DNA of 64,000 nucleotides, from contig JAUFOR010000003.1 of assembly GCA_040285745.1 (NCBI GenBank), forward strand, positions 930,001 through 994,000, in the 5' to 3' direction. Source of the stretch: Barthelona sp. PCE. Lineage: Eukaryota. A program made the translations under genes and the position numbers. Positions 5,833-62,400 of the stretch are shown here, one piece after another. A model generated the notes under the pieces. The model saw only the letters and a program-made list of their open reading frames with translations. It had not been told where the DNA came from and did not search any database. Each line of letters starts with the position of its first letter. Within the stretch, counting starts at the first letter, position 1.

Positions 5833-6797
5833 TTACAAAAAGTGATCGGGTGTGCGTCGCAGAACGTGCTTAATACCTCTCCTGGGCGCTGCATCGTACA
5901 CAACAAATGAAGGAGTGATGCTCTCATCAACCTCCATAATTGCACCCTTGTTCTCCACTCTATAACAATAATTAGGTGCAGAGAACACTGTGACAACCTG
6001 CTGATCATGGGTCCACTGGTATCCGTTCATCATAAGCTGGTGAGCTCGAACCAACATGTTCAAACCATTGTTGTGAAGGAACTGAGATGATATGTCTTTT
6101 CCAAAGTTGTATCCCGCACCGCGCGGTGAAATAAACCAGCCTGGCCTTTGGTCGGGATCACTCCATACCAAATCTGACATGGCGCCTTCGTGTGGGATTT
6201 CCTTGGCACGCTCGATTGAGCGGATCTGGTCAAGATAGTCGACACAAGGACTTAGACCACCGTGGATACCGATGATGTTGCCCTCGATGACTGCAGCGAT
6301 TGGGAGGTGATCAAATACAGTGCTGAAATGACGCCAGAAATTACTGTTACCAAACTTACGCAGACATTCGTCATGAAATCCATAAACCTGTGTGATCTGA
6401 CGGCACTCGTGATTGCCACGCAACAGAAAAATACGGTCTGGGTAGCGAACTTTAAGAGCTAAAAGTAGTGTGGCACACTCAACAGAGTAGTAACCTCTAT
6501 CAACATAATCTCCCAAAAACAGATAGTTAGTTTCGGGAAGGGAACCACCTAGGAGGAAAAGTTCGATCAAATCATGAAGCTGACCGTGAATATCACCAAC
6601 AACGGTTACAGGTGCTCGTACTGTTACAATATTTGCTTCTTGGCTGATAATCTCAGTTGAATAAATGTTAGCGTGTTGTGCAAATGCGTTAATGAACATA
6701 CTCTATCGATAATCATTTTTATCTGGCTTTCTTTGATGAGTTTTGCATTAAATAACGACTCAATGATCGCGTCAACATCGTCTATGGGAGAGGACAT
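5833..6797 (-). CDS. PP2A-family Ser/Thr phosphatase catalytic subunit, 2 exons (6797-6702, 6660-5833)
   Basis: GDIHG, GDYVDRG, RGNHE and SAPNYC motifs plus C-terminal TPDHFL. Exon 1 ([12 protein letters not shown]...IKMIIDR) lies in a different frame, upstream of a GTATGT donor. Confidence 0.95.
6661..6701 (-). other. 41-nt spliceosomal intron, GT...AT by protein homology
   Basis: GTATGTTCAT...GCTAACATTTAT. The length is not a multiple of 3, so splicing is needed to join the exons. Confidence 0.75.
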
Positions 6798-15436: not shown

Positions 15437-16522
15437 ATGAATATTTTAGAAAGGGATGTATTGGACATAGAGGATATTGACTTTGTCATTAATCCTGACC
15501 GTACTCCGGGCAATGCTTGGTTTTCCCTCCCTCCTGATGATGAAGGAAAAATCAGATGCTTAGTATGCGCACATCGCTGTCTTATCTCAGAGGGAAAAGC
15601 AGGAATATGTGGAATTCGCAAGAATGAAGATAAAGTCCTTAAGCTTTACGGCTATGGCAAATCTGCAACGAGGGCTATTGATCCGATTGAAAAGAAGCCC
15701 CTGGCCCACTTCCACCCGGGGCAGGGCATTCTTTCACTTAGCTGCTACGGTTGCAACTTTGGATGCACATTTTGCCAAAACTACACCCTTTCAATGGCTA
15801 TCAAGGAGGGTGTTGACGTCGAAGAACTAGAAGACAACATGCAGGACATGCCGCCTGATATGGTTGTAAGGCTTTGCAAAATGAAGAACGTGAGATTCAT
15901 AGCTGGCACATATAACGAACCTACAATTTCTTTCGAGTATTATTACGATGTTGCCCGGCTTGCAAAAGAACAAGGTATCGAATTTGTGTTTGTCACCAAC
16001 GGATATATGACCCGAGAAGCACTGATTTATATGGCCCCATATATCGCAGCAATGAATATTGATTTAAAGGCGTTTTCTGAAGAGTTTTATCGAAAGATTT
16101 GTAAGGCTCGTCTCTCACCTGTTCTCTCCACAATACAACTGGCACACCTGCTTGGAATCCACGTTGAGGTTACAACTCTAGTAATACCAGGTGAAAATGA
16201 TGATGACATTGAAGGTATTTGCGATTTTGTTGCAAGTGTTTCAAACGATTTAGTTCTACACCTCAGTGCGTTCCACCCAGACTATCGGATGACTAACCGT
16301 GGTAGAACTACCCCAAAGCTCCTCAGAGACTGTAAGACAATCGCTGTAGAGAAGGGATTGCGCTTTGTGTATTTGGGCAACACAAAGTCAGACGATAGTA
16401 TTTATTGTCCTGAATGTAGTACTGTAGTGATAGAGAAACGCGGATATGTAGTGACGAGAGTGAATGTTGAGTCTGATGGGCTCTGCCCAACTTGTAAGTG
16501 TCGAATTTATGGTCGCTTCTAA
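15437..16522 (+). CDS. AmmeMemoRadiSam-type (PFL-activase-like) radical SAM enzyme
   Basis: N-terminal CxxCxxxC...GxCGxR, DPIEKKPLxHFxPG, CNFGCTFC cluster motif, YNEP and C-terminal CPEC/CPTC. Confidence 0.9.
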   Translation: MNILERDVLDIEDIDFVINPDRTPGNAWFSLPPDDEGKIRCLVCAHRCLISEGKAGICGIRKNEDKVLKLYGYGKSATRAIDPIEKKPLAHFHPGQGILSLSCYGCNFGCTFCQNYTLSMAIKEGVDVEELEDNMQDMPPDMVVRLCKMKNVRFIAGTYNEPTISFEYYYDVARLAKEQGIEFVFVTNGYMTREALIYMAPYIAAMNIDLKAFSEEFYRKICKARLSPVLSTIQLAHLLGIHVEVTTLVIPGENDDDIEGICDFVASVSNDLVLHLSAFHPDYRMTNRGRTTPKLLRDCKTIAVEKGLRFVYLGNTKSDDSIYCPECSTVVIEKRGYVVTRVNVESDGLCPTCKCRIYGRF

Positions 16523-22690: not shown

Positions 22691-23447
22691 TTTTTATCAA
22701 AAAACAATTGTTATCAAAAAAATCACTAAACAACCCCGATACTGGAAAATTGGGAAAATGCATTAAAGAAATGTTTTAATTTCTAAAATATTCACATGAA
22801 AACCTAATATGTGAACATGGTAATATCTGATTGCGATGATTACTTATTTAAAGCACTCAAAAAGATGCCGGCGGTTATTTTTAATCTTGTACCTCACTAC
22901 ATTCCAATTTGAATCATGAATTTGGTACAACGAGAGGCACGATGCCTGGGAAAAGGTGTGAGAAAATAATCGTTCTTCGTTCTTAGTAGTAAGTTTTTTG
23001 TAAAAGATTTACGTGTGTGTGTGGTGAGTCAACATTCTCGTTTACACCCGTAGACATTTGAAAAACTAGTACCTATATGGTTAAAATACACTAATCATGC
23101 AACCATTAAACGTGAAAAATTAAAATACACACACATACGTTCTATTCCCCTAAATTATCTTATAATCTATTTATAAATGAATGTACATTAGTGGTATGGT
23201 CCAAATCAAGTTTATTTTAAACTAAGAACAATTATTAAATTTCTCAAAAAATGAAAACTAATTAGTAATTTTTAATCGATGGCGGGTCTCTACCGTTTGA
23301 TTACAACACTATTTTCAATATACTTAACCCTTAATTACGTGAGATGGACGAGAAAACCAACCGTAATTGTGAATAACCAATTTGATACTTGACACTTTCG
23401 TTGCAATATTTCCGTCAAACGACCAAAATACTCAAAATGGATGTTTG

Positions 23448-23470
23448 CTCCGGATAGCTCAGTCGGCAGA
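23448..23470 (+). pseudogene. 5' fragment (nt 1-23) of tRNA-Tyr with intact A box
   Basis: CTCCGGATAGCTCAGTCGGCAGA matches the start of the tRNA at 32715 at 21/23 positions and has the same upstream flank. Confidence 0.85.
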
Positions 23471-25024
23471 CTCTTCCTTTTCAAAAAGCTTTTGGTGGAG
23501 GGGTCCTGCTACTGTAAGTAATGCCCATAGAAAACTATGAACGATTAGTAAAGGATAGTAGGAGATTCTTTACAGAGGTCATGGTGCCGCATACGGGCTA
23601 CCATCTTCAGTTTGTAAGTCATACATCTCGTATTTCAATTACTAAGCAGCAGTACAACTAGAATAAATAGGAAAACTGGTAATAACACCAGCATATGTTC
23701 TATTCCATTCTCTGTTCAAAATCAACTGCAAGATCTTCCTAACAGGGATACGATTGTAATGTCATGCTTGTTTATCTTATTGTTATAGGATTACAAAATG
23801 TTTTCTGAAAAATATTTTTTCCTAATCCAAATCTTCCACCAACCTCAATATGAAGTGTAACCCATTGTATAAGGCCTGTCTCCTCATTTATAAAAAAGAA
23901 AATCAAAAATGATTAATTGCCTACTTCCAAAAAAAGTATAAATATTAGTAATTCCTGTATGAATCATTGGAAAGTTCAATTAAAAAATCTAAAACTTCAA
24001 TTACGTGCGCAGTATGCCCGTGTCACGAAAACCTGTGCTCGTCCACACTGAAACAGCCGATTTATATGCTTCAACAGCCACTGAGTTGTAGTCAAACAAG
24101 GTTGCACTGAATAAAAAATAACAGCCCAATGCCGTCCAAACTGTTGCCCTCTTCGCCAAAGTGCCCGTCCTCGCTGCTGTGATGCCCGTGGGGATTTTGA
24201 GTAATCCGTGAAAACGGTGATAAAACAAAATGCGAAATGTTCCCCGTTAAGATACCTGGGAACTGTTTCACGTTGTTGCATAAGAGCTTTTCCAAAGAAG
24301 AATATATAAAAAACTAAGGGAAAGAAGATGAAAAAACTGAAAACAGGGTTCTTACCTGTTATGACTAACGCATCTTTCCTCTGCTATTTTGTGTAAAACG
24401 TGCACATCGGCGGCCCCCGAACAACAGAATAGCTTGAAATACATAACCACGCATGCAGAAATGTTCTATGACCCATGACAGTAAAAGTGTCCTTTCGCAC
24501 GCATTTGGTGTGTAACCCGAGACATGATGCCCGATAAAGGTGTGTAAAAATATAAAAATACGTTCTTAGCAGTAAGTTTTTTGTAAAAGATTTACGTGTG
24601 TGCGGTGCTCGTTTACACCCGTAGACATTTGAAAAACTAGTACCTATATGGTTAAAATACACTAATCATGCAACCATTAAACGTGAAAAATTGAAATACA
24701 CACACATACGCTCTATTCCTCCAAATTATCTCACAATCTATTTGTGTATTGTATGAATGTACATTAGTGGTATGGCCCAAATCAAGTTTATTTTAAACAA
24801 AGAACAATTATAAAATTTCTCAAAAAAATTAATACTAATTAGTAATTTTTAACTAACTGTGGGTCTCTATCGTTTGATCACTCCACTATTTTCAACATAC
24901 TTAACCCCTAATTACATGAGATGGACGAGAAAACCAACCATAATTGTGAATAACCAATTTGATACTTGACACTTTCGTTGCAATATTTCCGTCAAACGAC
25001 CAAAATACTCAAAATGGAGGTTTG

Positions 25025-25047
25025 CTCCGGATAGCTCAGTCGGCAGA
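25025..25047 (+). pseudogene. second 5' fragment of tRNA-Tyr
   Basis: Identical 23-mer in repeat unit 2. Confidence 0.85.
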
Positions 25048-26410
25048 CTCTGCCTTTTCAAAAAGCTTTTGGTGGAGGGGTCCTGCTACTGTAAGTAATG
25101 CCCATAGATAACTATGAACGATTAGTAAAGGATAGTAGGAGATTCTTTACAGAGGTCATGGTGCCGCATACGGGCTACCATCTTCAGTTTGTAAGTCATA
25201 CATCTCGTATTTCAATTACTAAGCAGCAGTACAACTAGAATAAATAGGAAAACTAGTGATAACACCAGCATATGTTCTATTCCATTCTCTGTTCAAAATC
25301 AACTGCAAGATCTTCCTAACAGGGATACGATTGTAATGTCATGCTTGTTTATCTTATTGTTATAGGATTACAAAATGTTTTCTGAAAAATATTTTTTCCT
25401 AATCCAAATCTTCCACCAACCTCAATATGAAGTGTAACCCATTGTATAAGGCCTGTCTCCTCATTTATAAAAAAGAAAATCAAAAATGATTAATTGCCTA
25501 CTTCCAAAAAAAGTATAAATATTAGTAATTCCTGTACGAAACATTGGAAAGTTCAATTAAAAAATCTAAAACTTCAATTACGTGCGCAGTATGCCCGTGT
25601 CACGAAAACCTGTGCTCGTCCACACTGAAACAGCCGATTTATATGCTTCAACAGCCACTGAGTTGTAGTCAAACAAGGTTGCACTGAATAAAAAATAACA
25701 GCCCAATGCCGTCCAAACTGTTGCCCTCTTCGCCAAAGTGCCCGTCCTCGCTGCTGTGATGCCCGTGGGGATTTTGAGTAATCCGTGAAAACGGTGATAA
25801 AACAAAATGCGAAATGTTCCCCGTTAAGATACCTGGGAACTGTTTCACGTTGTTGCATAAGAGCTTTTCCAAAGAAGAATATATAAAAAACTAAGGGAAA
25901 GAAGATGAAAAAACTGAAAACAGGGTTCTTACCTGTTATGACTAACGCATCTTTCCTCTGCTATTTTGTGTAAAACGTGCACATCGGCGGCCCCCGAACA
26001 ACAGAATAGCTTGAAATACATAACCACGCATGCAGAAATGTTCTATGACCCATGACAGTAAAAGTGTCCTTTCGCACGCATTTGGTGTGTAACCCGAGAC
26101 ATGATGCCCGATAAAGGTGTGTAAAAATATAAAAATACGTTCTTAGCAGTAAGTTTTTTGTAAAAGATTTACGTGTGTGCGGTGCTCGTTTACACCCGTA
26201 GACATTTGAAAAACTAGTACCTATATGGTTAAAATACACTAATCATGCAACCATTAAACGTGAAAAATTGAAATACACACACATACGCTCTATTCCTCCA
26301 AATTATCTCACAATCTATTTGTGTATTGTATGAATGTACATTAGTGGTATGGCCCAAATCAAGTTTATTTTAAACAAAGAACAATTATAAAATTTCTCAA
26401 AAAACTAAAA

Positions 26411-26581: not shown

Positions 26582-26685
26582 AGAAAATAGGAAACCTTGA
26601 TATAAGTGAACTAAGCAAATTCAACCCTGCTTCGTGTTCCATTCTCTAATTGTTCATCAATCTGGGATCTTGAGGATCGGTTGCA
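26582..26685 (-). repeat. split direct repeat A2 (104 bp)
   Basis: Identical to 32421-32524. Confidence 0.95.
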
Positions 26686-29600
26686 TGATTCACCATAGTT
26701 CCTTCCCTTATATGCAGCGGTAGTAAAGCCTGAAACTTTGATGATTTACAGAGATCTAAGTTTGGGTATGGTGCCACGAAGGGGTCACCGAGGTCGGTGT
26801 GCGGAAGTCCAAAAATCCATTCATAGAAACTTCCGTACTCCAACTCCAAACTATCGATACTCTGCGCCTGGTCCATCCTTGGTTTTATGTTCGACATGTA
26901 ATACTGATGGGCCGTAGTGGCTTTAGTGGACCACCTGCCATGTATAGAACTATCGTCCACGTTGAAATTTGCGTCTACAATGAATCCTGATCTCAGCGAG
27001 TGAGGTGTCAATCTCGCATATGTGTCAGAATTCTCCGGGATCAATCCTGTGCTCTCAAGCTTGGATTGTACCTCCGTCATGCAACCTTGTAATGACGCTA
27101 TGACCAGCTCCTGTTTGATTCCAGGGTGGTCTGGGTGGTGTTTTTCCGAGGTCTCAGTGATTCGGCTTTTAGTGTTGAACAGCGTGCCACGATCTTCCAA
27201 GTGATCCGTCGCTTGTTCCATCCAGTACAAGTAGGCAACTAACCAGTCGAGGCCTGGGGTGCCTTGGATGTCCTCGATGGGAACCAACCACATCTTGTTT
27301 TCAAATTGTGTTTTTGTTCTTCTAAACACAATTGTAAGCATTTCGCCACTCACAGCGATCTCATCGAGCCTTGTATGTGTGAAATCTGACTGTCTGCCTG
27401 CTGCCAGGTATGCAATGGCAACAAATGCTAACATAGTTAACAGTTCTTTGAAGTGGAATTCTGCATTATCTAGTGATGCCTGAATAATCTCCTTCTTCGT
27501 TGCTATGGCGTGTTGTATGACACGTTTAATGACCTCAGCAGTAGCTGCCATTCTAAATGTTCTGTCAGCCGAATCGTGCGTCGCGTGGTATTGTTGGATC
27601 ACGCGCCCAACCACCCACTTTTTATCATTTGTGCTTGTCTTGTGGTGATGATACACATACAAGAAGGTCTTGTGTAAGGACAAGAGTCTTGAGTAGTAAG
27701 ATTGGTGTGTTCCTTTCATTAAATCAGACACACCATCGTCTGTGTCCGTGAGGTACTGCTCACAGAACCAATCATTCCAGAGTTTTAAGTCACAGCACAC
27801 ATCATTCAGCTTTTCGTTGAACATGCTGGCATCCTGGGTAGTGATCAAATGAGTATGAATCTTCTTAAAGGTCTTCATCATACTGTTCACCGTACTCTTG
27901 CTGTACATCTTGGTTAGCTGATCCTTCAAATGGCCTCCAAATGGAACGGCAATCTTGCCAGGTGCGTCATGGCTCTTCTTCTGCAATGGCTTGTAACCGA
28001 GCTCTTGCGGGTCAATTATAATCTTGTACCCGGTGTAGCTGCCCATGTTATCCTGGATAGGTGATGTAGAGCATCGTGACCACATAGATGTGAATGGGAT
28101 CCTATATGGGGCAATAACAGTTATCTTGACGTTTCGACGGATAGCCTTAGTGCATAGAATCTCTAGGGCCTGGTCAGCCGGGACATCTAACGCATTGCAC
28201 ACCCACTTTTTGTAGTTGTGCTCTACGTTGAAGTATGTGGAGGGTAAGTCCTGTGCAGCACATTCTATCTTCGACATTGCTGGGATGTCGACACGATCAC
28301 CTTCGAAAGTAAATGCAGTGTTGGGGGCAGTGATATCGATGATATCGTCCTCCTTTAAGAATTCCGGTAGGGACGTGAGTGTAAACGCATCCAGGCTCTG
28401 ATTGTAATCAGGTAGTGGTAGTGTCTCGCCGTTCGGGTCAGACGCTCCGTATAACATCGCTGTATGGAACATGAGTTTAGACTTTCCTTTTGACGACTGA
28501 TCGGGCCTCTTCTTAAAAGGCCTGTGTGCAACTGGGACGTCCAGCGTACGCGGGACTGATTTTCGAATTCTGACTTTTTTCGCAGGTTGCATCATTCGGA
28601 TCTGATACATCTTGTGATCATTTGTGGTCGCGACACCTCGCGACAAGTAGTCTGCAGCAATGTTGATCTTGGATTGGACGTACATTAGGTTCATTCGAAT
28701 ATTGTACTTCTCAAACAATGCTAAGATGCTCTTGATGCACTGGTCGAGGACCATGTTCCTTGATCTGCCGGTTCTTAAACCGTATACCACGGCTGTGTTG
28801 TCGTTACCAATCAGGAAGTCTGAATTGGGGTTGAGGGGTGCTGCCGTCTTGACGATCGTATGCAACGCCTGTATCTCAGCGTGCATGATCATGTAACTCT
28901 CGCTCTCGTCGGGATCAAGCTCAAGTTCTCGAAGTAGGGTGCCTGGTTCTAGCGCTGCTTCCTTCAATTCGTTCAAGAATTCTCCATTACGTGAGGTGAA
29001 GCCTCCGTGTCCCTCACGGTGGCCGTTGAGACATGCATCCGACATAATGATGACATCCTCAGCGCGAACGTCGATCTCCCTGTTGGCGTTCCTGGTTAAG
29101 GACTCAAGCGCCTCGCGCATGATCTGCAGGTACTCAGGGCACAACTTCTGTGGGATGAGTGTGTTCTGAAGGTGTTTCTTACGGTAGCAAGGGATGCACT
29201 CTTGCTCAATCGGAGCTCGTATGCTGATCCGGACAGTATCTCTGATGATCTCCTGGATCCGTTCTGCATAACGTTTGAGTTTTGGACATGCAAACGATTT
29301 GGACTCAAGTTTGCCGGCTAAACTCATTGCATCTTCTAGGGATATGCTCCCTTCGAACTTAATCAAATGTTGAATGTGTTCTTGAACCACTTTAATCATG
29401 CCGCGACATTTGTCGTCTGCGATTCGCACTTTGGTGGCGTTTCCGCTATACGTGTCGAAGTGGTAACCCAACCAATTGATACGCTTGGTGGGTGTGAGGA
29501 CAGATTTGTCCATATTGATCTGGATACCCAATATGAAACATAAATACTGAATTGCGTGTACCGTTCTCCTGACTACCTCATAGTCTTTGCCATATATTAT

Positions 29601-31433
29601 GAAATCGTCAACATAAACTTCACAGCAACTGCCGCACTGGTTGACCAACGCTGCTATCATTGAAGAAACCGAATTTGAAATGTTGCCGGCTATCGACGAA
29701 CCAAACGGTGTGCGGGTGAATCGATAATACTCATCCTGATGTTTGAATACAAAGAACATCGACGTTGCTTCGTCCATCATATTGTGGTAGAACCATGATG
29801 ATAAGTCAATACTTGCCATATACGCATCACGTGGAATTAACTTCGCAATTCTTTCACCAGGCAGGGCCACCGGGAGCATGATGCTCGCGTCATGTGCTTC
29901 TGGTGCGTCCATGATAACTCTCCATTTTCCGTTATCCTTCGGGATAGCGAAGACATCATTCACAACGATTATGTCGTCCCTCTTGTCGTCAGGAACCCTT
30001 TCAACAAACGGTGCAACTGTGGCGAATGCTTCCTCCGCAACTTCAGGATCGAAAACCTTTGAACCCTCGAGTTTACGATTATGTTTGAGATATTCAACCA
30101 TTTCCGCGTCCAACCACCTGTTGGGAGACGTATCGATCACTCGGTCGTACACGACGTCAGGATCTGCGAACTCCAGTGCTCCAATCATATCTCGTAGCTT
30201 TTGGAGTTGTGGTGCAGACTCGAGGAAGTGGTCACTGCTTCTGATAGCCCACTTTTTCTCGTCTGTGAATGTGCGTATGTCAAACTGGCCGAATCTGTTA
30301 TTTCCAGATAGCCTAACTCTACGTGCGTGTGTATACAACTCAAAATGCATTTGTGTTTTTCCTTCGATGATATGTCTGACGGTAGACTCAATTAGTTTCT
30401 CTCTGTAAGACAACGTCGAATGCGGTTTTTCGACATTCATCTTGTAACCGTGGATAGATTTCTTCTCGCGGTGCTCGGGTAACTGCACTTCCAGTGTGTC
30501 CCTAGACTCGCTGCACGTGATGTTTTCGTTACTCCTGACTGCGTTGATCACCTTCTTCAAAGACTTTTCAGATAAGTCACACTCTGTGGTTGTCTCAACA
30601 CTCTCGTCCGTTGGCCGTTTTGATAGCTGTTCCAATATGGCCTTGTTAGACTCAATAATCGTGTCTAACTTCTTGCACTTGTCATCCTCGCGTTTCTCTT
30701 GTTTCTCACGCTTGGTGTGCTCATCCCATACCTCCTTCGCTTTGGGGGGGTCAGGGATCTTCTTGTCTATCTGCCGCTGTGTCTGTTGCAGATCTTCAAT
30801 GCAGGCAAGTAAGTATTCAAGCTGGTTGTCCTCTCGAGGTCCAACCACTCCAGTTAGTGATAATAACTTCTTGCCAGAGCCGTTATTGGCATCAATCGAT
30901 GTGCCAGCGGGCTCTTTGGCCTCAACCTTGCTGTCGTCAGCTTTTGAGGTCTTCTTTGGTGAGATGGTGCGCTTGTTTCGCTGTTTCCTCGCTCCAGATC
31001 TCTTCCCTGGTTCCCGTTTGCGTGTCTTCGTTTCTCCAACGGGATCCTTGGCCCCACCTTTGATATCAGGAGGACAACTGATCTCAGTATCTCCCTCTGG
31101 TGGGGGCTTGTCTCTCAAGACGACAACGCATTCGTTATCACGCGTCGTCTTGTCATCGTTACACCTTTCTGGAGGACTCCTTCCGGGATCGTCTCTCCCT
31201 GAACCATTACCGATGTAATCATATGTTACGAGGATCTTCTTGCCCTCGTGGTTCCACACGCCTGGAGGGGGTGGAACCTTTGGCGGTCGCTTTGTGTACC
31301 GCTGTTTGACGGTCGTTGAGCCGTTAACATTTCTACTTAGTCCATTCACAGCACCTGTGAGCTTCTCTAAAACATCAACAATCGAGTTCCCTTCTTTTAC
31401 AGTCCGAGGGGACTCATCAACGACCGCTCGTTT
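26646..31433 (-). CDS. retrotransposon pol: reverse transcriptase-RNase H-tyrosine recombinase fusion
   Basis: RT: FAIPKDNGKWRVIMD, IDLSSWFYH, TPFG, YVDD, WLGY. RNase H: SDAC, HAE, NDN, AADYLSR. YR: GRQSD, KT, HSLRSG, GRW, YY. The frame stays open up to the gag stop. Confidence 0.95.
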   Translation of the reverse strand, partial: KRAVVDESPRTVKEGNSIVDVLEKLTGAVNGLSRNVNGSTTVKQRYTKRPPKVPPPPGVWNHEGKKILVTYDYIGNGSGRDDPGRSPPERCNDDKTTRDNECVVVLRDKPPPEGDTEISCPPDIKGGAKDPVGETKTRKREPGKRSGARKQRNKRTISPKKTSKADDSKVEAKEPAGTSIDANNGSGKKLLSLTGVVGPREDNQLEYLLACIEDLQQTQRQIDKKIPDPPKAKEVWDEHTKREKQEKREDDKCKKLDTIIESNKAILEQLSKRPTDESVETTTECDLSEKSLKKVINAVRSNENITCSESRDTLEVQLPEHREKKSIHGYKMNVEKPHSTLSYREKLIESTVRHIIEGKTQMHFELYTHARRVRLSGNNRFGQFDIRTFTDEKKWAIRSSDHFLESAPQLQKLRDMIGALEFADPDVVYDRVIDTSPNRWLDAEMVEYLKHNRKLEGSKVFDPEVAEEAFATVAPFVERVPDDKRDDIIVVNDVFAIPKDNGKWRVIMDAPEAHDASIMLPVALPGERIAKLIPRDAYMASIDLSSWFYHNMMDEATSMFFVFKHQDEYYRFTRTPFGSSIAGNISNSVSSMIAALVNQCGSCCEVYVDDFIIYGKDYEVVRRTVHAIQYLCFILGIQINMDKSVLTPTKRINWLGYHFDTYSGNATKVRIADDKCRGMIKVVQEHIQHLIKFEGSISLEDAMSLAGKLESKSFACPKLKRYAERIQEIIRDTVRISIRAPIEQECIPCYRKKHLQNTLIPQKLCPEYLQIMREALESLTRNANREIDVRAEDVIIMSDACLNGHREGHGGFTSRNGEFLNELKEAALEPGTLLRELELDPDESESYMIMHAEIQALHTIVKTAAPLNPNSDFLIGNDNTAVVYGLRTGRSRNMVLDQCIKSILALFEKYNIRMNLMYVQSKINIAADYLSRGVATTNDHKMYQIRMMQPAKKVRIRKSVPRTLDVPVAHRPFKKRPDQSSKGKSKLMFHTAMLYGASDPNGETLPLPDYNQSLDAFTLTSLPEFLKEDDIIDITAPNTAFTFEGDRVDIPAMSKIECAAQDLPSTYFNVEHNYKKWVCNALDVPADQALEILCTKAIRRNVKITVIAPYRIPFTSMWSRCSTSPIQDNMGSYTGYKIIIDPQELGYKPLQKKSHDAPGKIAVPFGGHLKDQLTKMYSKSTVNSMMKTFKKIHTHLITTQDASMFNEKLNDVCCDLKLWNDWFCEQYLTDTDDGVSDLMKGTHQSYYSRLLSLHKTFLYVYHHHKTSTNDKKWVVGRVIQQYHATHDSADRTFRMAATAEVIKRVIQHAIATKKEIIQASLDNAEFHFKELLTMLAFVAIAYLAAGRQSDFTHTRLDEIAVSGEMLTIVFRRTKTQFENKMWLVPIEDIQGTPGLDWLVAYLYWMEQATDHLEDRGTLFNTKSRITETSEKHHPDHPGIKQELVIASLQGCMTEVQSKLESTGLIPENSDTYARLTPHSLRSGFIVDANFNVDDSSIHGRWSTKATTAHQYYMSNIKPRMDQAQSIDSLELEYGSFYEWIFGLPHTDLGDPFVAPYPNLDLCKSSKFQALLPLHIREGTMVNHATDPQDPRLMNN
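26686..26818 (-). repeat. split direct repeat B1 (133 bp)
   Basis: Identical to 26411-26543. It abuts A2, recreating the circle junction GGTTGCA|TGATTC. Confidence 0.95.
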
Positions 31434-32714: not shown

Positions 32715-32796
32715 CTCCGGATAGCTCAGTAGGAAGAGCGCGGGACTGTAAAGTTTGGTAATCCTGAGGTCGCTAGTTCAATTCTGGCTCCGGAGA
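32715..32796 (+). tRNA. tRNA-Tyr(GTA) with 9-nt intron (32752-32760)
   Basis: Acceptor stem CTCCGGA/TCCGGAG (C1:G72, A73), D arm GCTC/GAGC, anticodon stem CGGGA/TCCTG with CT-GTA-A, T arm GCTAG-TTCAATT-CTGGC, and a T5 terminator at 32801. Confidence 0.95.
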
Positions 32797-43686: not shown

Positions 43687-44190
<504 letters not shown>

Positions 44191-46656: not shown

Positions 46657-47490
46657 ATGTCTCAACCACAGTACACCAATGCTCACAGCCACGAAGCTGA
46701 TTTACATAAAAAACGTACAATTTCGCAGAACCCCTCAAAGGTTCAAGCTGTAGAAGCAGTACCACTTTTATCAGACCCGATCACACACATTCAACAACCT
46801 TCGATGGCTAATAGTAATTCACAGCATATTGGAAATCATCAGCCTCACAATTCATCAATGCCTAAACCTGGGCCTCAAATGTATTACAGCAATGGAGCGC
46901 CCATTGTGAGCATGTTTTCCAGGCCGGTGCCTCAGAAGATCGAGAAGGACATCACCGATTTATTAGAGGAGTACAAGCCTGTTTTGCTGGCAATTGAGCA
47001 GAAAAAGCGAAAGAAGGAGATCAAACAGGATCGGTTGAGCCTGAATTTGGGTGAAGAAAGCAATGAAGATTCAGTTAACATGACATTCTCGGAAGCATTC
47101 AAGCTACACAAAGAAAAGTATCTGGAATTCGTCACTGAGATGCAAGAGTTCGTTGATGATACGGGTGTGCGACAAGCAAACAAGTTCGTCTGGAACGTTC
47201 CTGGGGTTAACCAGATCACACCAGACTTTTTATATCTGCATCAAATTGCAGATCAACTTCCTGATGCAAAGAACTTCAAATCGTTCGTTGACATGAACAA
47301 CCCGATCATACAGCAGCTTTTTTATGCCTGGACACTCCAACAGATGGCTTTTCAGCGCATCTATGTCAAATTCATCAACTCAGGTTTAAGTCCTTTCCAG
47401 TTCTTCAGTGAGCTTAACGCAGGGCTTTTGGAGGTCAAACCTAAAAGAAGAAGAGGAAGACCAAGTAAGAAGTACAAGCCAAAGCACTGA
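46657..47490 (+). CDS. hypothetical nuclear protein with C-terminal AT-hook
   Basis: KRRRGRPSK motif. Start placed at MSQPQ. Confidence 0.6.
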   Translation: MSQPQYTNAHSHEADLHKKRTISQNPSKVQAVEAVPLLSDPITHIQQPSMANSNSQHIGNHQPHNSSMPKPGPQMYYSNGAPIVSMFSRPVPQKIEKDITDLLEEYKPVLLAIEQKKRKKEIKQDRLSLNLGEESNEDSVNMTFSEAFKLHKEKYLEFVTEMQEFVDDTGVRQANKFVWNVPGVNQITPDFLYLHQIADQLPDAKNFKSFVDMNNPIIQQLFYAWTLQQMAFQRIYVKFINSGLSPFQFFSELNAGLLEVKPKRRRGRPSKKYKPKH

Positions 47491-50400
47491 AAGCCCAAAG
47501 ACGAATGTTGAAAACTTGAAAAGATATTCTTTTTTAATCGTTTTTTCGATTTTAACACATTGGAACGTTGTATTTTCATGTGACAAATGCTTCATTTCAT
47601 GAGAAATAAACATAGTACACAAATGCTTCTTTTTTTCAATGTGCTCACATATCAGCCGAGACTCTTCATCTAACGTTTCTCCTGTCTCACCTAGGATAGA
47701 ACTGTGCCTCGAAAGGACAGCGCTGAACGGAGACCAGGCCTTGAATTCAGTCGATATTCTAATAGATTCATAGTTGAAGGATGAAGCGCACACATACTCG
47801 ATAGTCTTATCTACATAGAATGCTACCATGCGTACTGCTGTACTGCTTTCAAAGAGAACAGGTCCAGTGGAAAGTGAGGTTCCTTCATACGTGTACATGA
47901 CGTGCTTCTCCTGGAATGCTACAGTTCTGATAAAACCAGGTGATATCAGTGATTCTATAAACGGGAGGGCGAAAGGGGTGTCAGGAGGTGCAATTGAGGA
48001 GCCCCAAAGAAGTGATGAGCTTCCTGTAATATGTGTATGTTGAGTCACGCATGAAAACCCACAAGCAGTTACTTTAACAACAGTACCATAAGTAACATCG
48101 CTGACAAATACATATGGTAGCCGTGATGTGAAGAACTCCTGATCGCCAATGCTCCAAGTATATGCAGGTAGCATAGTTTGTGCTGTTTGGAAGGAAACCG
48201 AAATCAAAAAAGCTTTATCATATAAGTGAGCGTTATTGATCGTAAAAGGGCCTACGAAGCCGAATTCAATCATGAATTGGAAAGAAGGGGAGTTTCCTAT
48301 GGTAATTACGGTATCAATCACGGGAACATTCGACTGAACAATTACTCTAAAGAAATCATTGAACTTCTCAACACTAGCGGTGCACATGGAACCATCGGTG
48401 CAGCTGACTCTCAATGAAGATTGAGTGTACACCAAAAATTGCGTGAACTCTGAATACTCTCCAAAGTGACCGTATGTTAAAGTTTGATTGAAAGCAACTA
48501 AAACAGGCACGTTTGCCACTGTCCTAAGCCCAGTCGTTTCATCTTGAACGTGAACATGGAATATGTATGTTTTCTCCACCGAAACAAAGGTTGAACTGAC
48601 AGTAACGTTTGCTTCAGTTGAGGAGAAGTCGTGCAGACAGTTTGCGCAATCCCAAATTACTGTGCAATTGATGCAAGCACCGCAATATCGAAGGTCGAAA
48701 TCGGTGGCGTTTGTTACAATCGGTGCAATGACACATACCGGAGGGGATACCATATCCTTCGCCTCAGTCATATTAATGACTGGAATATCACCATTGTTGA
48801 GCACACCTTTGCATATAGTGTCTGATGAGTCACATGTGGTGTTAGTTACGATGGAAAAACCCGAGTCCTGAGTTGAATATTCTATGGAAGAAGAACCGGG
48901 TATTGTAAAGCGTACCACCAATGAGGAGTCATCACCTTTCATGTAGAAATATGCAGTTTGCGCAACAGTGACGAAAAGGGAAGACGAGTGCTCGATCAGG
49001 ATTTCACGGTCATCAACCTTGAAGACCGCTTGGAGTTGCATCGTAGGCTCGACAAAATAAGCAGCAAGCGAGGCAGGGATGTTATCTCCGATGCTAAAAA
49101 CGAAATCATGGGACGGAAAAAGACGAACCACTCTGTCCGACAACGTATGTAATATGTTGAAGCCTTTTGCTAGCCTGAACGCGAGATCAAACTCAATTGA
49201 AAGTGCACCAAACGGTGAAAGGCTCATGGAAACAGCTCGTGGTCTCTTTTCCGGACATATTGTGTTGACACAAACGCAAAAATCGTTGCCTTCACACTCA
49301 CATTCATCGGCACACCTTGAACCATCATCATCAACGATCCAAGTACATCCCCTCAGGCAATTGACACACCCTGTGTTCTGGGAACAATTTTTGACAACTA
49401 GCTGACAGAAGAGTCCTGTATAGCCGTTCTTGCAGTAACAGACTCCGTCTACCACATTTCCATGTCCAAAACAGTCAAAAATAGCCGTCTCTGTCTCGCT
49501 TACACGGCGCATATGTGCTTTGAACCCCTTATAACTGTAATTATCATCAGAAGTGAAGCTCACCCACACGCGCTGAGTTTGTGTGAGCACGAATAAGCAC
49601 AGCTCCTCCGTTTCTGCAATGCTAAAGTAGCATATGTCCAAGAAAACAGCAACATCAGAGGAGCGGTCCAACGTAAGGTTTTGGGAATTTGTCGGTGTGA
49701 GGAACAAAGGTAGAGAGAGACCACGAGAACTGGTGAGATTGAGATGGCCGCTGAAGCGCGCATATGTTTTGTTACTCAATTCATGGTTGAACCCCAAGAT
49801 CTCAACTGTATCAAATTGGCGCTCGATATCCACCTTGCTGAACTGTAGCATTGTTCCCACCTGGGAATCATGGACTTCCTCAATCGGCATAAACACCCAA
49901 CTACAATCCATACTGGGCTGGTACCTCGAAAAGTAGCTCTGGGTTGCTATATCCGCAACTGTTGCTGTTATCTGCACAATACCCTCGCAATACCACCCAT
50001 GGGAATCGTAATTCAGCTCAAATCCACGGCCATCCACATTATCGTCCGTCACAAGGACGATACGTGCATATCCACCATTGACAACAACTGGTTCTGGGAT
50101 GGTTGAACCGCTATGTCGCATAACGATGGAGTCTTCATCATTTTGATCGGAGTTAAAGATGTAGACAACATCGTACTCCGCCTCAGTATCGAAAGAGATG
50201 AACTCGATTTCAATGCGGTCATGAACGGGAGAAGGCTGAATTATCCACGTGCATTCGATGCCTTCTTTGTATCTCTGGCCAACATTCGTCTGGATTGTTC
50301 CTTTGGGCTCAGTGAGTGTAACAATACCCGCGCAATGGTACAAAGAGCAGTCGTCTCCACTGAACAAACCTTGGCACATGCACCGACCCAAAACGCATAC

Positions 50401-52611
50401 ACCATGTCCGCTACAGTCGTTAAGGCAATGTGGAATGGAGCAGTCCGCACCACTATGCCTGTCGCACTTACAAACACCATTGATGCAAACACCATTGCCG
50501 TCAGAGGCATGACAATTGTTGGGACATACCTGTGTACCACCTTCCACTTCTGTCAGCTGCGATGAACCGCGTACGGCGAGCGCAAAGAATTGAGGGCCAA
50601 CAGGAACATAACTTCCGTGGACTACCACACGAATACTGTCACCTGGTCCGACTGATAGGTGGGCTTGCTGAACGTTATTCTTAGAGTCCCACTCTTTCCC
50701 CTCCAATAACCCCTCGTTACCCTTGGCTATGGACCCGTTCACGCGCATCACAAGGAGATCAAGATCGTTTACGAGACAAGACGTGCAGGCAGGGCTCGCT
50801 GGGTAGTCAACATAAGCCAACACCACGGTTACACTAACTGACTGCGTGTTATCATTGCGGAACCACCAGTTGCGTTGGGACCAGGTCGAAATTGGCACGT
50901 TGTCAACAAAGAACGTCATATTGCGTACAATATTTCCGAGGTTGGGTCGGCCAAAACCTTGTATGAACGATGGTGCCGGAGACACCTGCCGGAAATCACC
51001 TGTACCGGTCCAGTCCATACTTCCCGTGAGAGAAGTTGCCGACGAAATGATGAGCGCCTTGATTAGGCTTGAACTAGGTGCTTCCACGCTTCTGTTGTGT
51101 ATGAGATACTCACGTACCAGGGCCACAAACCCAGCAATGGTCGGGCATGCCATTGATGTGCCGGACTTCGACTGTACAGTGTCGCGTCCGTCACCACACT
51201 GCTTGAACGGGGCTGCGCTTGTGACATACTCACCAGGCGCAACCACATCGGGCTTGATTCGGTAGTCGCTGGTTGGACCTCTTGAGCTAAACGTTGCCAT
51301 GTTCACCTCTGAAAAGAGAGATGGGTATGTGGTCATCGCGGTGTAGTAATAGCAACAGGATGGGATCGACGGTGTGTTGTCTTCACAACAAGTGTCGACA
51401 AACCCTTGGTATGATGTCATAGAGGCTCCGACTGAAATTACGTTTTTGGCCAGTCCTGGAGAGCTCACACTGGCTAGTCCAGCCTTTCCGTAGTTTCCAG
51501 CAGAGAATACGACGACTGCATCGGGACGCAGGAAGACAAAAAGGTCTATGTCACGTGTGGAGACTGTGTACTCGTTGACTTGAGAAGACCAGCTGTTTGA
51601 AAAAATGCGGCTGCCAGCCTTGTATGGTTCGATGAATAATGTGCTTACGTCAAGAGGAAATGAAAGATACTCGCAGTCTCCTTGGCAAACGTCAACGAAA
51701 TAAAGCTTCGAATCAGGTGCAATACCGTCAAATCGAGAAGTGTTAAGACCAACAAAATCGAGACACTGCGATTGGCCAGCGATTGTTCCGCATACATGGG
51801 TACCATGCCCCTCTGTGCTTTCTATGGCATCGACGTGTGCGTCGTAGTAGTAAACCTTACGGTGATCCGGCATCTTTGTGTTAGGTCTGAAGAAAACAGC
51901 ATCATCTCTAAAGAATGGTGAAAGAACGTCAAGACCGGTGTCGATAACAGTCACCAATTCATTCTTTCCGCTGAGACCGAATCTTTCCGAATTAGGAGCG
52001 TGTGATCCTGTGGCAAGGATCGATGCAGCGTACATGTTGTCGATTGTGAAATCTTCATGAGAGTCGACCCATATAACTGATGGAATGTTGCTCAGAACTG
52101 ATGATATCTTCTTTAGACTCGTCTGTCGCGTGTAAAAGAGACGGTACCGTGTATTCCATGTCGATAGTGTGAATGTATCTGTTGGAATCACAAGATCTAA
52201 TAAACTCAACAATGCGCTTGTGTCTAGTACTGAAGAGGACTCAAATGAAAGGGACATGTTTTTCGCATTGGCGTGCATGGGAAACAAAATGGGTTCCTTC
52301 ATACGTGCGGCAGAAACTGTTATGTTAATAACACAGTCGCCGAAGCTAAATGCAGAACAACGGCCAATTATGGTGTTAGGTGGAAGAAATTGGAATCCAG
52401 AGAGACTGTGTGCATCTAAAGAACAATTAGTAAGAACACCGTGACAAATTGCAGCATCACTCTCGTTATCGTTGGATTGCAACGTTGTTGCCCAAAAAAC
52501 ATCACCTAACCCAATATTTCCGCCCTCTTTAGTTCCAAATCTATAAGCAAAAGAGCTTACAGAAGGAAGACACAAAAAAAACAAATACAAGAAAACTCTT
52601 GTGAACTTCAT
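47386..52611 (-). CDS. membrane-anchored subtilisin-like (S8) serine protease with EGF and CUB domains
   Basis: Signal peptide; catalytic triad VIDTG, HGTHVCG and GTSMACP; EGF repeats (CSGHGVC...); CUB domains (CTWII, FDTEAEYD); C-terminal TM helix. Confidence 0.92.
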   Translation of the reverse strand: MKFTRVFLYLFFLCLPSVSSFAYRFGTKEGGNIGLGDVFWATTLQSNDNESDAAICHGVLTNCSLDAHSLSGFQFLPPNTIIGRCSAFSFGDCVINITVSAARMKEPILFPMHANAKNMSLSFESSSVLDTSALLSLLDLVIPTDTFTLSTWNTRYRLFYTRQTSLKKISSVLSNIPSVIWVDSHEDFTIDNMYAASILATGSHAPNSERFGLSGKNELVTVIDTGLDVLSPFFRDDAVFFRPNTKMPDHRKVYYYDAHVDAIESTEGHGTHVCGTIAGQSQCLDFVGLNTSRFDGIAPDSKLYFVDVCQGDCEYLSFPLDVSTLFIEPYKAGSRIFSNSWSSQVNEYTVSTRDIDLFVFLRPDAVVVFSAGNYGKAGLASVSSPGLAKNVISVGASMTSYQGFVDTCCEDNTPSIPSCCYYYTAMTTYPSLFSEVNMATFSSRGPTSDYRIKPDVVAPGEYVTSAAPFKQCGDGRDTVQSKSGTSMACPTIAGFVALVREYLIHNRSVEAPSSSLIKALIISSATSLTGSMDWTGTGDFRQVSPAPSFIQGFGRPNLGNIVRNMTFFVDNVPISTWSQRNWWFRNDNTQSVSVTVVLAYVDYPASPACTSCLVNDLDLLVMRVNGSIAKGNEGLLEGKEWDSKNNVQQAHLSVGPGDSIRVVVHGSYVPVGPQFFALAVRGSSQLTEVEGGTQVCPNNCHASDGNGVCINGVCKCDRHSGADCSIPHCLNDCSGHGVCVLGRCMCQGLFSGDDCSLYHCAGIVTLTEPKGTIQTNVGQRYKEGIECTWIIQPSPVHDRIEIEFISFDTEAEYDVVYIFNSDQNDEDSIVMRHSGSTIPEPVVVNGGYARIVLVTDDNVDGRGFELNYDSHGWYCEGIVQITATVADIATQSYFSRYQPSMDCSWVFMPIEEVHDSQVGTMLQFSKVDIERQFDTVEILGFNHELSNKTYARFSGHLNLTSSRGLSLPLFLTPTNSQNLTLDRSSDVAVFLDICYFSIAETEELCLFVLTQTQRVWVSFTSDDNYSYKGFKAHMRRVSETETAIFDCFGHGNVVDGVCYCKNGYTGLFCQLVVKNCSQNTGCVNCLRGCTWIVDDDGSRCADECECEGNDFCVCVNTICPEKRPRAVSMSLSPFGALSIEFDLAFRLAKGFNILHTLSDRVVRLFPSHDFVFSIGDNIPASLAAYFVEPTMQLQAVFKVDDREILIEHSSSLFVTVAQTAYFYMKGDDSSLVVRFTIPGSSSIEYSTQDSGFSIVTNTTCDSSDTICKGVLNNGDIPVINMTEAKDMVSPPVCVIAPIVTNATDFDLRYCGACINCTVIWDCANCLHDFSSTEANVTVSSTFVSVEKTYIFHVHVQDETTGLRTVANVPVLVAFNQTLTYGHFGEYSEFTQFLVYTQSSLRVSCTDGSMCTASVEKFNDFFRVIVQSNVPVIDTVITIGNSPSFQFMIEFGFVGPFTINNAHLYDKAFLISVSFQTAQTMLPAYTWSIGDQEFFTSRLPYVFVSDVTYGTVVKVTACGFSCVTQHTHITGSSSLLWGSSIAPPDTPFALPFIESLISPGFIRTVAFQEKHVMYTYEGTSLSTGPVLFESSTAVRMVAFYVDKTIEYVCASSFNYESIRISTEFKAWSPFSAVLSRHSSILGETGETLDEESRLICEHIEKKKHLCTMFISHEMKHLSHENTTFQCVKIEKTIKKEYLFKFSTFVFGLSVLWLVLLTWSSSSSFRFDLQKPCVKLTEELERT

Positions 52612-54894: not shown

Positions 54895-55209
54895 TTAGGG
54901 AGCCTGGATCAAACCCTTCTCGATGGCGAAGTTGGTCAATACGAAGTCAGAGCGGGCACGAGCACGGACGAAACCGGAAAGGGCAATGGTCTGCTTGTTC
55001 TTAACGTAGATACCAGCCTCATTGAGTTCAGCAAGATCGATCTGAACAGAAGCGGAGTCCTTGGCAGAAATGATACGGTTAGTGGCGTAACTTAATGTTA
55101 GTCATGAAAGTGAAATACATCTAGGGTTAAAGGAAACCCAACATTGTAAAAAAACATACCACTTGCGGGGAATGTAAACATCAACAATGCGTCCTTCGTT
55201 GTTTTGCAT
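54895..55209 (-). CDS. RPS21: 40S ribosomal protein eS21, 2 exons (55209-55160, 55090-54895); missing from the ORF track
   Basis: The spliced product reads [34 protein letters not shown]...ALSGFVRARARSD. Confidence 0.97.
55091..55159 (-). other. 69-nt spliceosomal intron GT...AG
   Basis: GTATGTTTT...GACTAACATTAAG, splitting the Cys codon of PRKC. Confidence 0.95.
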
Positions 55210-59490: not shown

Positions 59491-62400
59491 ATGAATCTCA
59501 GCCGAAAGAGATTGAGGTACGCAGAGGAAAGTCCCAATAGGGCACGTCTACCTAGGATTCATAGAAGGGTGATGGAGAACAGCGTTAATGACAAGAACAG
59601 CATATATTATAGACCAAGGTTGAGACAACGTCGTATGAAAAGGTTGCTTCCCACAGCTTCTCCAACACCAAGGCAGAATCAATTGGTTTTGACTTCCATT
59701 GAGCGAGAACGTGCACAAACGCATCTGGGTTTCTATCATGATCGTGACTCTAACAATTTATCCCATTCTCCTGCATCAAAAAAGAAGTTTCGCAACCCAC
59801 CCATTCCTATTAATGATTTTGCACATTTTGTAGGTATTTGGGACCCAACGATGGATATATTCGATATATCACACTCCACAACAGGCGGAATCACGATGAA
59901 TTCGTACTTTATTTCACTACCAGAGACACCAACTTCTAAACCCATTTGTATTCTTGTAGACGGTGTCAAGACGAAGTTTTTCAAGCAACATCTGTCCCAG
60001 ATCAAATCGTCTATGAACTATTTCGATCATCAAACGCTTGATTATTTCATTGTGCAACACTGTGAGGACGATCACGCAGGCGATATTGGTCAGATCATTG
60101 AGACGTTCCCCGAGTGTAAGGTGTTTTGCACGCCCGTTGCTAAGGACTTTATTAGCAACATTTCGAACAAAGAATACGGTAACATTCACACGTTCAGTAG
60201 TGACACGGAGCTGAAGCTCGACGGTCATATTGTTCACTTTTTACCAACAACAATGCTCCACTGGCCAGACACAGCGTTTACGTTCTTCCCAGAGATCGGA
60301 ATGCTCACGACTTGCGACTTTTTGGGTGCACACTTCTGCGAAAGTATATATGTGTACGAAGAGAGTGTCTTCAAGGTGCCAGGATACCGTGAAGCAATGT
60401 GGGTATACTTCGACTGCATCTTTGCCCCACTTAAGCGAGCTGTGCGAGTGGGCCTGGACAAGATAAGAACTTTTATGGACAGCGTTGAGTATTGTTGCAC
60501 GTCGCACGGTCCTCTTCTGCGACGTGAGGACTTCCAAAAGATCTTTTTTATGTACGATACATGGATCATGGAATATTTTGAGAAGAAGTCTGTAGATGTT
60601 CTCATTGTATATACTTCCGTTCACAACTACACCATGGCGATGCAGAAAACCATTGCTTTTACTCTCCAAAAGCTTGGTTTGCGTGTGGAGGCCATCCAAA
60701 TTGAAGGCCTCGAATCTCAAACTGCCGCTATCATGAAGCGGATTCACAACACTAGGTGCCTGTTGTTGGGCTCTCCAACCATTTTAAACGACGCAGTCCA
60801 TGAGATATGGGACATTGCGATATCTTTAAACAAACAAATCCACCAAGGCCTTGTTGTCGGTGCGTTTGGGTCTTACGGGTGGAGCGGAGAAGCGGTCGGT
60901 AACATCACAGAGCGGTTCAAACAGCTCGCTCTGGACTCTCCTCTGGAACCGCTTCGTGTTCATTTGAAACCTGACCAGGAGAAGTTGAAACCTGTCAGGT
61001 CGTGGGCAGGCGAACTTGGACAGTATCTCATCGATGGAACACCGCCGGTTGAACACGCCCCCGTAGTACAGGCGACAACAACCGCTTCGGGCAAGGCGGG
61101 GCTTTATAACGATGGGAAGCTGCGTCGCTGGAAGTGCCTGATATGTGGTGAGATTGTTGTTTCTGTCAATTCCCCCGAGCTGTGCGGTGTCTGTGGCGCC
61201 GAGGGCCCTGAGGTCTGGATCGAAATGGAGGATGATGACAAGCCGGAGCTTTCCGAGGAAGAAGCCTTCACCGGACATATTGTCATCATCGGTGCTGGTG
61301 CTAGTGGTGTCTCCGCGTGCAAAACAGCGCGAAAGAACAACAAGCGAGCGCGTATCACGATGATTTCAAACGAAAACGCTTTGCCATACAACCGAACAAA
61401 CCTTACGGTGGCTTTGGGTAATTCAGCCATTGCTAAGCAGCGTTCCTTCTTTATAGTGGACGATGAATGGCTCCGTGATAACTCAGTCGACATTATGCTT
61501 GGCTGCGATGTTGAGAGTGCTGATTTCAACTTGAAAAAGCTCGAAATCACTCAGTGTTACAAGCGCAACGAGTCAATGGATGCCTTTGAAAACTATGCAA
61601 TGGAGGAGATCTGTCAATCTCTAAGTGTGACATTCGACAAGCTCATTATTTCCACCGGAGCTCATGCGTTCATCCCCATGAAGGGTGCGCTCGACCACGA
61701 GAACGTAATTGGCCTGCGCACTGCTCGTGACCTGTGGAAGATCAACAGTCTGTTATCACAACCGAAAGCAGAAAGATACGAGATTGTAATTGTGGGTGCT
61801 GGTGTTTTGGCATTAGAGGCTGTGGATGCCCTTCTGAAGCGTGAAAACGTACATATTTCAATCCTCATTAGGAGTAGCTTTGTGCTCAGTGCTCAGGTCG
61901 GACGCGATAAGGATGTCAGCGAATTTTTCATTGAGGAAATGCGAAAGAGAGATGTCAACGTACTCACAAACGAATCTGTCGCCGAATTAGTTGTCCCGAA
62001 TGGATCTAATAGCGTATCGCAACTTCGGCTCAAGTCTGGAAGTGTTATTGATTGCTCTCTCCTCATGTTTTCAGTTGGAGCTCGTGCAAACGCTGGCATA
62101 GCACGCGATCTCGGGTTGGACGTTGACCGCGGTATCGTTGTCGACAGAGGTATGCGATGCTTTGTTGATGGTATTGCCACACCACTTGTTTATGCTTGTG
62201 GAGACTGTGCCCAACCGAAGGACGTTAACTACGCCATGCTGTGGTCAAATGCAATCAACCAGGGTGCCATTGCAGGTTTCAACGCTGCAGGTGGTAATAA
62301 GGAGTTGGAGAATCAGTCCTTCCCTTGTATATTGCATTGCTTTGATACTCAGATGTTCTCAGTGGGTTCTTTGCGTCAGGCGCCAACGGATATGGTCATA

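Follow-up and report, generated by a model that had tools for sequence, protein, structure and literature searches.

Does the intron in the gene encoding the PP2A catalytic subunit of Barthelona sp. PCE end at an AG, or at a set distance from its branch point whatever bases stand there? Few signals of eukaryotic gene expression are as conserved as the 3' AG of introns, and solved spliceosome structures show that it is recognised directly in the catalytic centre. A sequence-only reading of this DNA had proposed that the PP2A intron ends in AT, and that the spliceosome of this organism measures a fixed distance from the branch point and has relaxed the AG requirement. We analyzed the PP2A locus together with two further introns of the window, that is, the whole stretch of 64,000 nt under study.

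Barthelona sp. PCE is a free-living anaerobic metamonad whose 10.2-Mb assembly comprises eight contigs (PMC11316075). Barthelona belongs to BaSk, the sister clade of Fornicata (PMC11316075). Illumina data at 308x served to polish the assembly (Table 1 of PMC11316075), and the annotation was based on poly-A RNA-seq with HISAT2, GeneMark-ET, AUGUSTUS and PASA (PMC11316075). The excerpted text of the genome paper mentions introns once, in the methods (PMC11316075). Barthelona introns were not described in the literature searched; the supplements lay outside this search and may hold intron statistics. A literature search on non-canonical splice sites of metamonads found none described.

The PP2A gene and its disputed junction

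Judged from its domain and its matches, the downstream ORF (5833-6699) is unmistakably a PP2A catalytic subunit of the PPP family. Exon 2 encodes a Metallophos domain (E = 3.5e-40), and the protein could be aligned to the last residue of the solved human PP2A C-alpha (E = 2.5e-130). Translation of exon 1 gave a 32-residue PP2A N-terminus ending in IIDR, which could be aligned with the N-terminal helices in 119 PP2A homologs. Since exon 1 does not share the frame of the long ORF, an intron is needed to join the two. The frame is restored by either a 41-nt intron with an AT end or a 50-nt intron with a GAG end. The positions of all exons, introns and signals are given in the table.

Table. Exons, introns and splicing signals of the PP2A, E2 and RPS21 genes, in window coordinates
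Feature	Positions	Strand	Remarks
PP2A catalytic subunit, exon 1	6702..6797	-	ATG 6797-6795; 32 codons; last codon AGA (R)
PP2A 5' splice site GTATGT	6696..6701	-	identical with the Giardia 5' motif [G|C]TATGT
PP2A intron, fixed-distance model	6661..6701	-	41 nt, GT…AT
PP2A branch-point motif CTAACATT	6664..6671	-	common to all three introns of the window
Disputed 9 nt TCA ACT GAG	6652..6660	-	codons S-T-E under the +6 model; intron tail under the AG model
PP2A exon 2, undisputed part	5833..6651	-	includes stop 5833-5835
E2 ubiquitin-conjugating enzyme, exon 1	43687..43741	+	55 nt, phase 1; N-terminus of NCBI model P0122
E2 intron, fixed-distance model	43742..43801	+	60 nt, GT…TG
E2 intron, AG model	43742..43804	+	63 nt, CAG end
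E2 exon 2	43802..44190 (from 43805 in the AG model)	+	stop 44188-44190; UQ_con domain
RPS21 exon 1	55160..55209	-	50 nt; NCBI model P0243
RPS21 intron	55091..55159	-	69 nt, GTATGT…CTAACATTAAG
RPS21 exon 2	54895..55090	-	includes stop

In the PP2A intron the branch motif is followed by TAT (6663-6661), and the bases at positions +5/+6 after CTAAC are AT. We refer to an intron end 6 nt past CTAAC as the +6 junction, and to the use of the first AG further downstream as the AG model. No AG is found in the 41-nt stretch from 6701 to 6661, including the 24 nt between GTATGT and CTAACATT. Past the branch motif, AG first occurs in the GAG at 6654-6652, which lies in frame and 9 nt beyond the +6 junction. 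Its use gives an intron of 50 nt (6701-6652) and removes the residues S-T-E. TCA ACT GAG is followed by ATT ATC…, which is in the same frame as the long PP2A ORF. The layout described by the sequence-only reading, with GTATGT…CTAACATT, AT at +5/+6 and a nearest AG 9 nt further on that deletes S-T-E, agrees with the sequence in every part. The GAG is the sole canonical acceptor for PP2A. Other GT sites, read by eye as possible donors, lack the consensus, and the later acceptor AGs (ATCAG, CCAAG), also read by eye, are out of frame or cause a larger deletion.

Two spliced proteins of the window are found at NCBI under Barthelona sp. PCE. In the NCBI annotation, made with RNA-seq hints, RPS21 (AAG acceptor, 50-nt first exon) and E2 are both spliced as GT-AG introns. 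The sole PP2A model on record, P0001 (288 aa), has the ATG within the intron's GTATGT as its start codon and does not contain exon 1. P0001 appears to be an NCBI model too, because no ORF-caller version of E2 or RPS21 was present among the proteins searched. The public PP2A annotation is probably truncated at the N-terminus. A GT…GAG intron backed by reads should be picked up by such an annotation, while a GT…AT intron would be dropped by tools that accept GT-AG only; this is suggestive, not decisive. No transcript-derived protein of Barthelona sp. PCE was found among the protein-search matches.

Both spliced PP2A models were built from the window coordinates and aligned with 119 non-self homologs. 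The ESQ-to-GDIHGQ segment comprised 37 residues without gaps in the +6 model and in 104 of the 119 homologs, as expected from the earlier statement that +6 splicing aligns gap-free. A segment of 34 residues was displayed by the AG model only and by none of the 119 homologs. The other 15 homolog models were truncated or contained large insertions. In no homolog were the three disputed columns missing with both neighbours kept, and any gap in these columns was confined to the truncated P0003. The three columns were occupied by A (113/119), R or K (109/119) and E (104/119), the last being the Glu that the earlier reading had called conserved.

An HMM was built from the 81 well-formed homologs, which had 295-330 aa and a segment of 37 residues. 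The homologs dropped before this step had large insertions or were truncated, and none had the length of the AG model. The HMM scores were 517.1 bits for the +6 model, 505.8 bits for the AG model and 492.2 bits for the ORF alone, so that the +6 model exceeded the AG model by 11.3 bits and the ORF-only version by 25 bits. In phmmer alignments with solved structures, the T and E of S-T-E aligned to residues 36-37 of human PP2A C-alpha, and the S was covered in alignments with PP1 chains. In 71 of 80 metagenome PP2A loci the match ran from the first disputed residue (S). The AlphaFold model of the homolog P0010 (mean pLDDT 78, about 96 locally) places the disputed residues in the middle of a predicted helix of 16 residues (26-41), where A36 and E38 are nearly invariant. 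The collections searched contained no close relative, the best PP2A identity being 67% among proteins and 64% among the 80 metagenome loci, and they offered no barthelonid orthologue for a comparison of the disputed codons.

Five vertebrate PP2A models (P0019, P0027, P0045, P0056 and P0072) contain 35-114 extra residues at the position of the Barthelona intron, located exactly between the K/R and the A/S columns. These insertions look like retained introns, which hints that the intron position may be old.

A shared intron class in the window

The pattern GTATGT-N(24-54)-CTAACATT matched three times in the window, compared with 0.01 matches expected, and at least three matches were obtained in 0 of 100 shuffles. 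The earlier description of three introns sharing GTATGT and CTAACATT plus 3 nt is borne out by this count, as are their different ends at +5/+6: AT in PP2A, TG in E2 and AG in RPS21. The GTATGT 5' site and the ATT after CTAAC were each kept in all three introns, and all three introns are located less than 100 nt from the start codon. An AG occupies the fixed position in one of the three, so that the AG end of fused-motif introns is not a feature common to them. The distance of 6 nt between CTAAC and the intron end is given by the AG in RPS21, and applies to PP2A and E2 only if the +6 junction is used. With the +6 junction, gap-free proteins of family length were obtained in all three genes.

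In RPS21, GTATGT (55159) and CTAACATT (55101-55094) are followed by AAG, which puts the AG exactly at +5/+6. Exon 2 begins at position 18/19 of the Pfam S21e profile, after 16 residues and a split codon from exon 1. The 81-aa NCBI model uses the same +6 junction, which is thus confirmed by the Pfam coordinates and by the NCBI model.

In E2, GTATGT (43742) and CTAACATT (43791-43798) are followed by TTG and then by CAG. The +5/+6 bases are TG, and an in-frame AG with the acceptor TTTTGCAG|G lies 3 nt beyond the +6 junction. The TG end had been read correctly before, but too little weight had been placed on this textbook acceptor directly after it. The +6 model encodes 147 aa, with PGV between DPP and SAGPV. 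In the AG model (146 aa), which is identical to the NCBI model P0122, RV stands between DPP and SAGPV. A Barthelona paralog, P0134, also has 147 aa and three residues in the junction loop. The E2 segment had the +6 length in 109 of 119 homologs and the AG-model length in none; the other ten were shorter or truncated, except for one that was a residue longer. An HMM was built without the paralog from those 58 of the 119 homologs that had 140-160 aa and a full segment. It scored the +6 model at 238.5 bits and the AG model at 233.6 bits, 4.9 bits apart. Positions 1-139 of Pfam UQ_con corresponded to residues 5-140 of the E2 AG model and to residues 5-141 of P0134 and P0129.

A fourth convincing intron was not detected in the window, where 53 GTATGT sites, 1-mismatch variants upstream of CTAAC, gap ORFs and the glycogen phosphorylase start were inspected. 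The motif CTAACATT alone has four copies in the window, the fourth being inside the glycogen phosphorylase ORF (58608-58895, + strand). There, the fourth CTAACATT (58885) stands 277 nt from a GTATGT (58608), and an excision that ended at +6 would remove an in-frame stretch of 288 nt together with the conserved GTGNMKF region encoded in it. This pair is presumably a chance occurrence and unspliced. Bare CTAAC without ATT was found at 55082 (- strand) in RPS21 exon 2, 19 nt past the real branch motif, and at 6530 (- strand) in PP2A exon 2. These copies within exons suggest that the extended CTAACATT, and not CTAAC alone, is the recognised element.

Between the PP2A branch point and GAG no stem was found (z = 0.71). 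A stem-loop that draws GAG near the branch point, as proposed for Rps15 of Spironucleus vortens, was considered, and no such stem forms. Stems inside the two longer introns were not significant (z = 0.78 and -1.50).

The window is in keeping with the published genome: its genes are tightly packed with short spacers, and many of the ORFs have no Pfam hit. A fusion protein of 1028 aa (59491-62577, + strand) combines a flavodiiron-type beta-lactamase fold with flavodoxin, rubredoxin-like and pyridine nucleotide-disulphide oxidoreductase domains; such an enzyme would detoxify oxygen and is typical of anaerobes. At 15437-16522 the window encodes a radical-SAM protein, likewise typical of an anaerobe. 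An open frame of 1595 codons with a reverse transcriptase domain (RVT_1) at 26646-31433 (- strand) represents a retroelement. Beside it, at 23037-26320, are direct repeats of about 1.57 kb (136-nt core in three copies, 96% identity), and a perfect repeat of 134 nt is located at 26410 and 26685. TRF with a maximum period of 500 detected nothing at 22-33.5 kb; the 1.57-kb repeats exceed that period. The only Rfam or ARAGORN match in the window was a tRNA-Tyr (GTA) at 32715-32796 (+ strand), whose length of 82 nt suggests a short intron. A subtilase of 1741 aa (47386-52611, - strand) contains CUB and teneurin/tenascin-type EGF domains, an animal-like mix in a metamonad.

Weighing the possible 3' ends

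The reading favoured here, at a probability of roughly 0.55, is that exon ligation would be set by distance and be independent of AG in the PP2A intron, and probably also in the E2 intron. PP2A would contain one spliceosomal intron of 41 nt, with a GTATGT resembling that of yeast and Giardia and a fused branch-point/3'-site element of the form CTAACATT+NNN. Ligation would take place at a fixed point, 6 nt past CTAAC and 7 nt past the branch adenosine. A short tether from the branch to the 3' end would put that phosphate in the catalytic centre; since the tether positions the phosphate, the last two intron bases may matter little, whether AG, TG or AT. According to structural work, the 5' G and the branch A are the pairing partners of the 3' AG. 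One canonical base is left at either disputed end (the A at -2 of the PP2A intron, the G at -1 of the E2 intron), and it may be speculated that a partial pairing of the 3' end could remain.

From these sequences we infer that the +6 junction is the junction in the RNA, that distance and not sequence sets it, and that this is a general property of the spliceosome; a relaxed AG rule for the whole spliceosome would be a generalization from three introns. The earlier claim of a fixed distance with a relaxed AG is therefore upheld in part. Spacing, family length and the 11.3 and 4.9 bits speak for it, but a canonical alternative is viable and the introns are three in number. In the strongest form of the claim, the Barthelona spliceosome would lack 3' AG recognition altogether. 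It would ligate 7 nt past the branch adenosine at any bases, and most introns genome-wide would be non-AG, with a U2-type look and a 3' choice like that of the minor spliceosome. Its origin may lie in lost or changed second-step factors for docking or proofreading of the 3' site. We consider this form tentative and give it somewhat less than an even chance. In both disputed introns the first downstream AG falls in frame, a coincidence of about 1 in 9 if AG is irrelevant and a requirement if AG is used.

That coincidence belongs to the side of ordinary GT-AG splicing, in which the first AG past the branch point is used. PP2A would then lose three helix residues by way of GAG (50-nt intron), E2 would lose one loop residue by way of CAG, and the +6 position would be a fossil. 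An ancestral AG at +6 would have mutated and splicing would have slid to the next in-frame AG, which in PP2A was supplied by the conserved Glu codon GAG. The consensus acceptor TTTTGCAG|G of E2, adopted by the NCBI model, is in agreement with this, and AG is near-universal in U2-type introns. In human U2-type introns no TG acceptor is constitutive, each requiring an AG close by, and AG-to-TG mutants switch to neighbouring AGs (PMC2374985). An AG displaced by 15 nt from the branch motif is still spliced in Rps15 of S. vortens, possibly aided by a stem-loop (PMC6679479). Divergence is general among Barthelona proteins (the best match to PP2A had 67% identity, and many ORFs of the window have no Pfam hit), and the coincidence with family length is also expected if an ancestral AG mutated while the spliceosome stayed unchanged. 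However, GT-AG splicing calls for junction-exact deletions in two length-conserved proteins, at two of three introns, each seen in 0 of 119 homologs and costing 11.3 bits in PP2A and 4.9 bits in E2. The PP2A deletion would fall in mid-helix according to the structure prediction. GAG is a poor acceptor and has no helping stem-loop between it and the branch point. GT-AG splicing also leaves unexplained the ATT after CTAAC in three of three introns, and an RNA-seq-guided annotation that caught the RPS21 and E2 introns but missed that of PP2A. We regard it as the main rival reading, and as the less likely of the two.

If AT or TG at +6 and the downstream AG were both used as tandem acceptors, each gene would give two isoforms. 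Both products are in frame, and the TTG|CAG of E2 matches the human TG-AG tandems, which are enriched at a distance of 3 nt (PMC2374985). In PP2A, by contrast, the sites are 9 nt apart and the upstream one is AT, not TG, and intron-poor metamonads have been reported, in the discussion of Trichomonas, to be without alternative splice sites. Use of both acceptors is improbable. Still less probable, and indeed very improbable, is the absence of relevant splicing, with a 288-aa ORF that starts at the ATG in GTATGT and exon 1 as a dead remnant, or an assembly error at 6661 in place of G. P0001 is the only gene model on record and agrees with the former. Exon 1 is nevertheless an intact ORF with an ATG that matches the PP2A N-terminal helices column by column, and the ORF alone scores 25 bits below the +6 model. 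The polishing with 308x Illumina data argues against an assembly error (PMC11316075), as does a second intron, that of E2, with non-AG at +6.

If distance-set ligation applies to most introns, a short tether between branch and 3' end can replace sequence recognition. This would provide a mechanistic link between the fused motifs of Giardia and Trichomonas and the choice of U12-type 3' sites, and the Barthelona introns would represent a new form of metamonad intron with a fused motif, one that behaves like U12-type introns at its 3' site. Gene finders restricted to GT-AG would mis-annotate the Barthelona genome, leaving PP2A truncated and E2 maybe one residue short.

Comparison with known intron systems

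[quoted passage not shown] Type A introns of Trichomonas carry RCTAACACAYAG and also end 6 nt past CTAAC. According to the excerpted reports, all 63 of these and all Giardia type A introns reported end in AG. The earlier statement that the fused motifs of both genera end in AG is in accordance with this, and the CTAAC+6 spacing is the same. The distance from branch to 3' end is invariant in Giardia (Hudson et al., 2019, PMC6679479), and in T. vaginalis a shift of the branch motif by 2 or 7 nt abolished splicing (PMC6679479). Strict spacing is not universal among the relatives, because the displaced AG of S. vortens Rps15 is used. The Barthelona introns resemble the fused introns of Giardia, Spironucleus and Trichomonas in their GTATGT and CTAAC and in their end at CTAAC+6 (for PP2A and E2 if the +6 junction is used). 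They also share the short length, the position towards the 5' end of the gene, often one for a ribosomal protein, and the compact, intron-poor genome. Unlike in Giardia and Trichomonas, CTAAC is followed by ATT+NNN and not by ACACAG, and AG stands at the fixed position in only one of three introns. If the downstream AGs were used, the Barthelona spacing would be +6, +9 and +15, which among the relatives has been reported only for S. vortens Rps15.

The U12 consensus has the 5' site [AG]TATCCTT and the branch site TCCTTAAC. It was not found in the three Barthelona introns, whose 5' sites are GTATGTTC, GTATGTAT and GTATGTTT and whose branch contexts are ACGCTAAC, TGTCTAAC and TGACTAAC. Strict branch-to-3' spacing is a U12-type trait (PMC6679479), and the recognition of U12 3' sites is rather unspecific (Szafranski et al., 2007, PMC2374985). 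Sheth et al. (2006, PMC1557818) list seven GT-AT introns and one GT-TG intron in a set of 66 U12-type introns with non-canonical termini. Experiments cited there showed GT-AT introns to be spliced by the U12 machinery, and conserved U2-type exceptions are also documented, namely GT-AT in DGCR2 and GT-TG in ARS2 (PMC1557818). The snRNAs of Giardia have been described as U2/U12 hybrids. If the +6 junction is used, the Barthelona introns are similar to U12-type introns in the strict spacing, in the unspecific 3' end and in the GT-AT and GT-TG termini documented for U12. They differ in that GTATGT and CTAAC fit the U2-type consensus and in the branch-to-end distance, which is 7 nt.

With respect to the human TG-AG tandems, the TTG|CAG of E2 has the 3-nt spacing that is the commonest human geometry. 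Unlike human TG sites, the TG junction of E2 would yield the family-length form, presumably the main one. The PP2A intron differs from these tandems in its upstream site, which is AT, and in its AG, which is 9 nt off.
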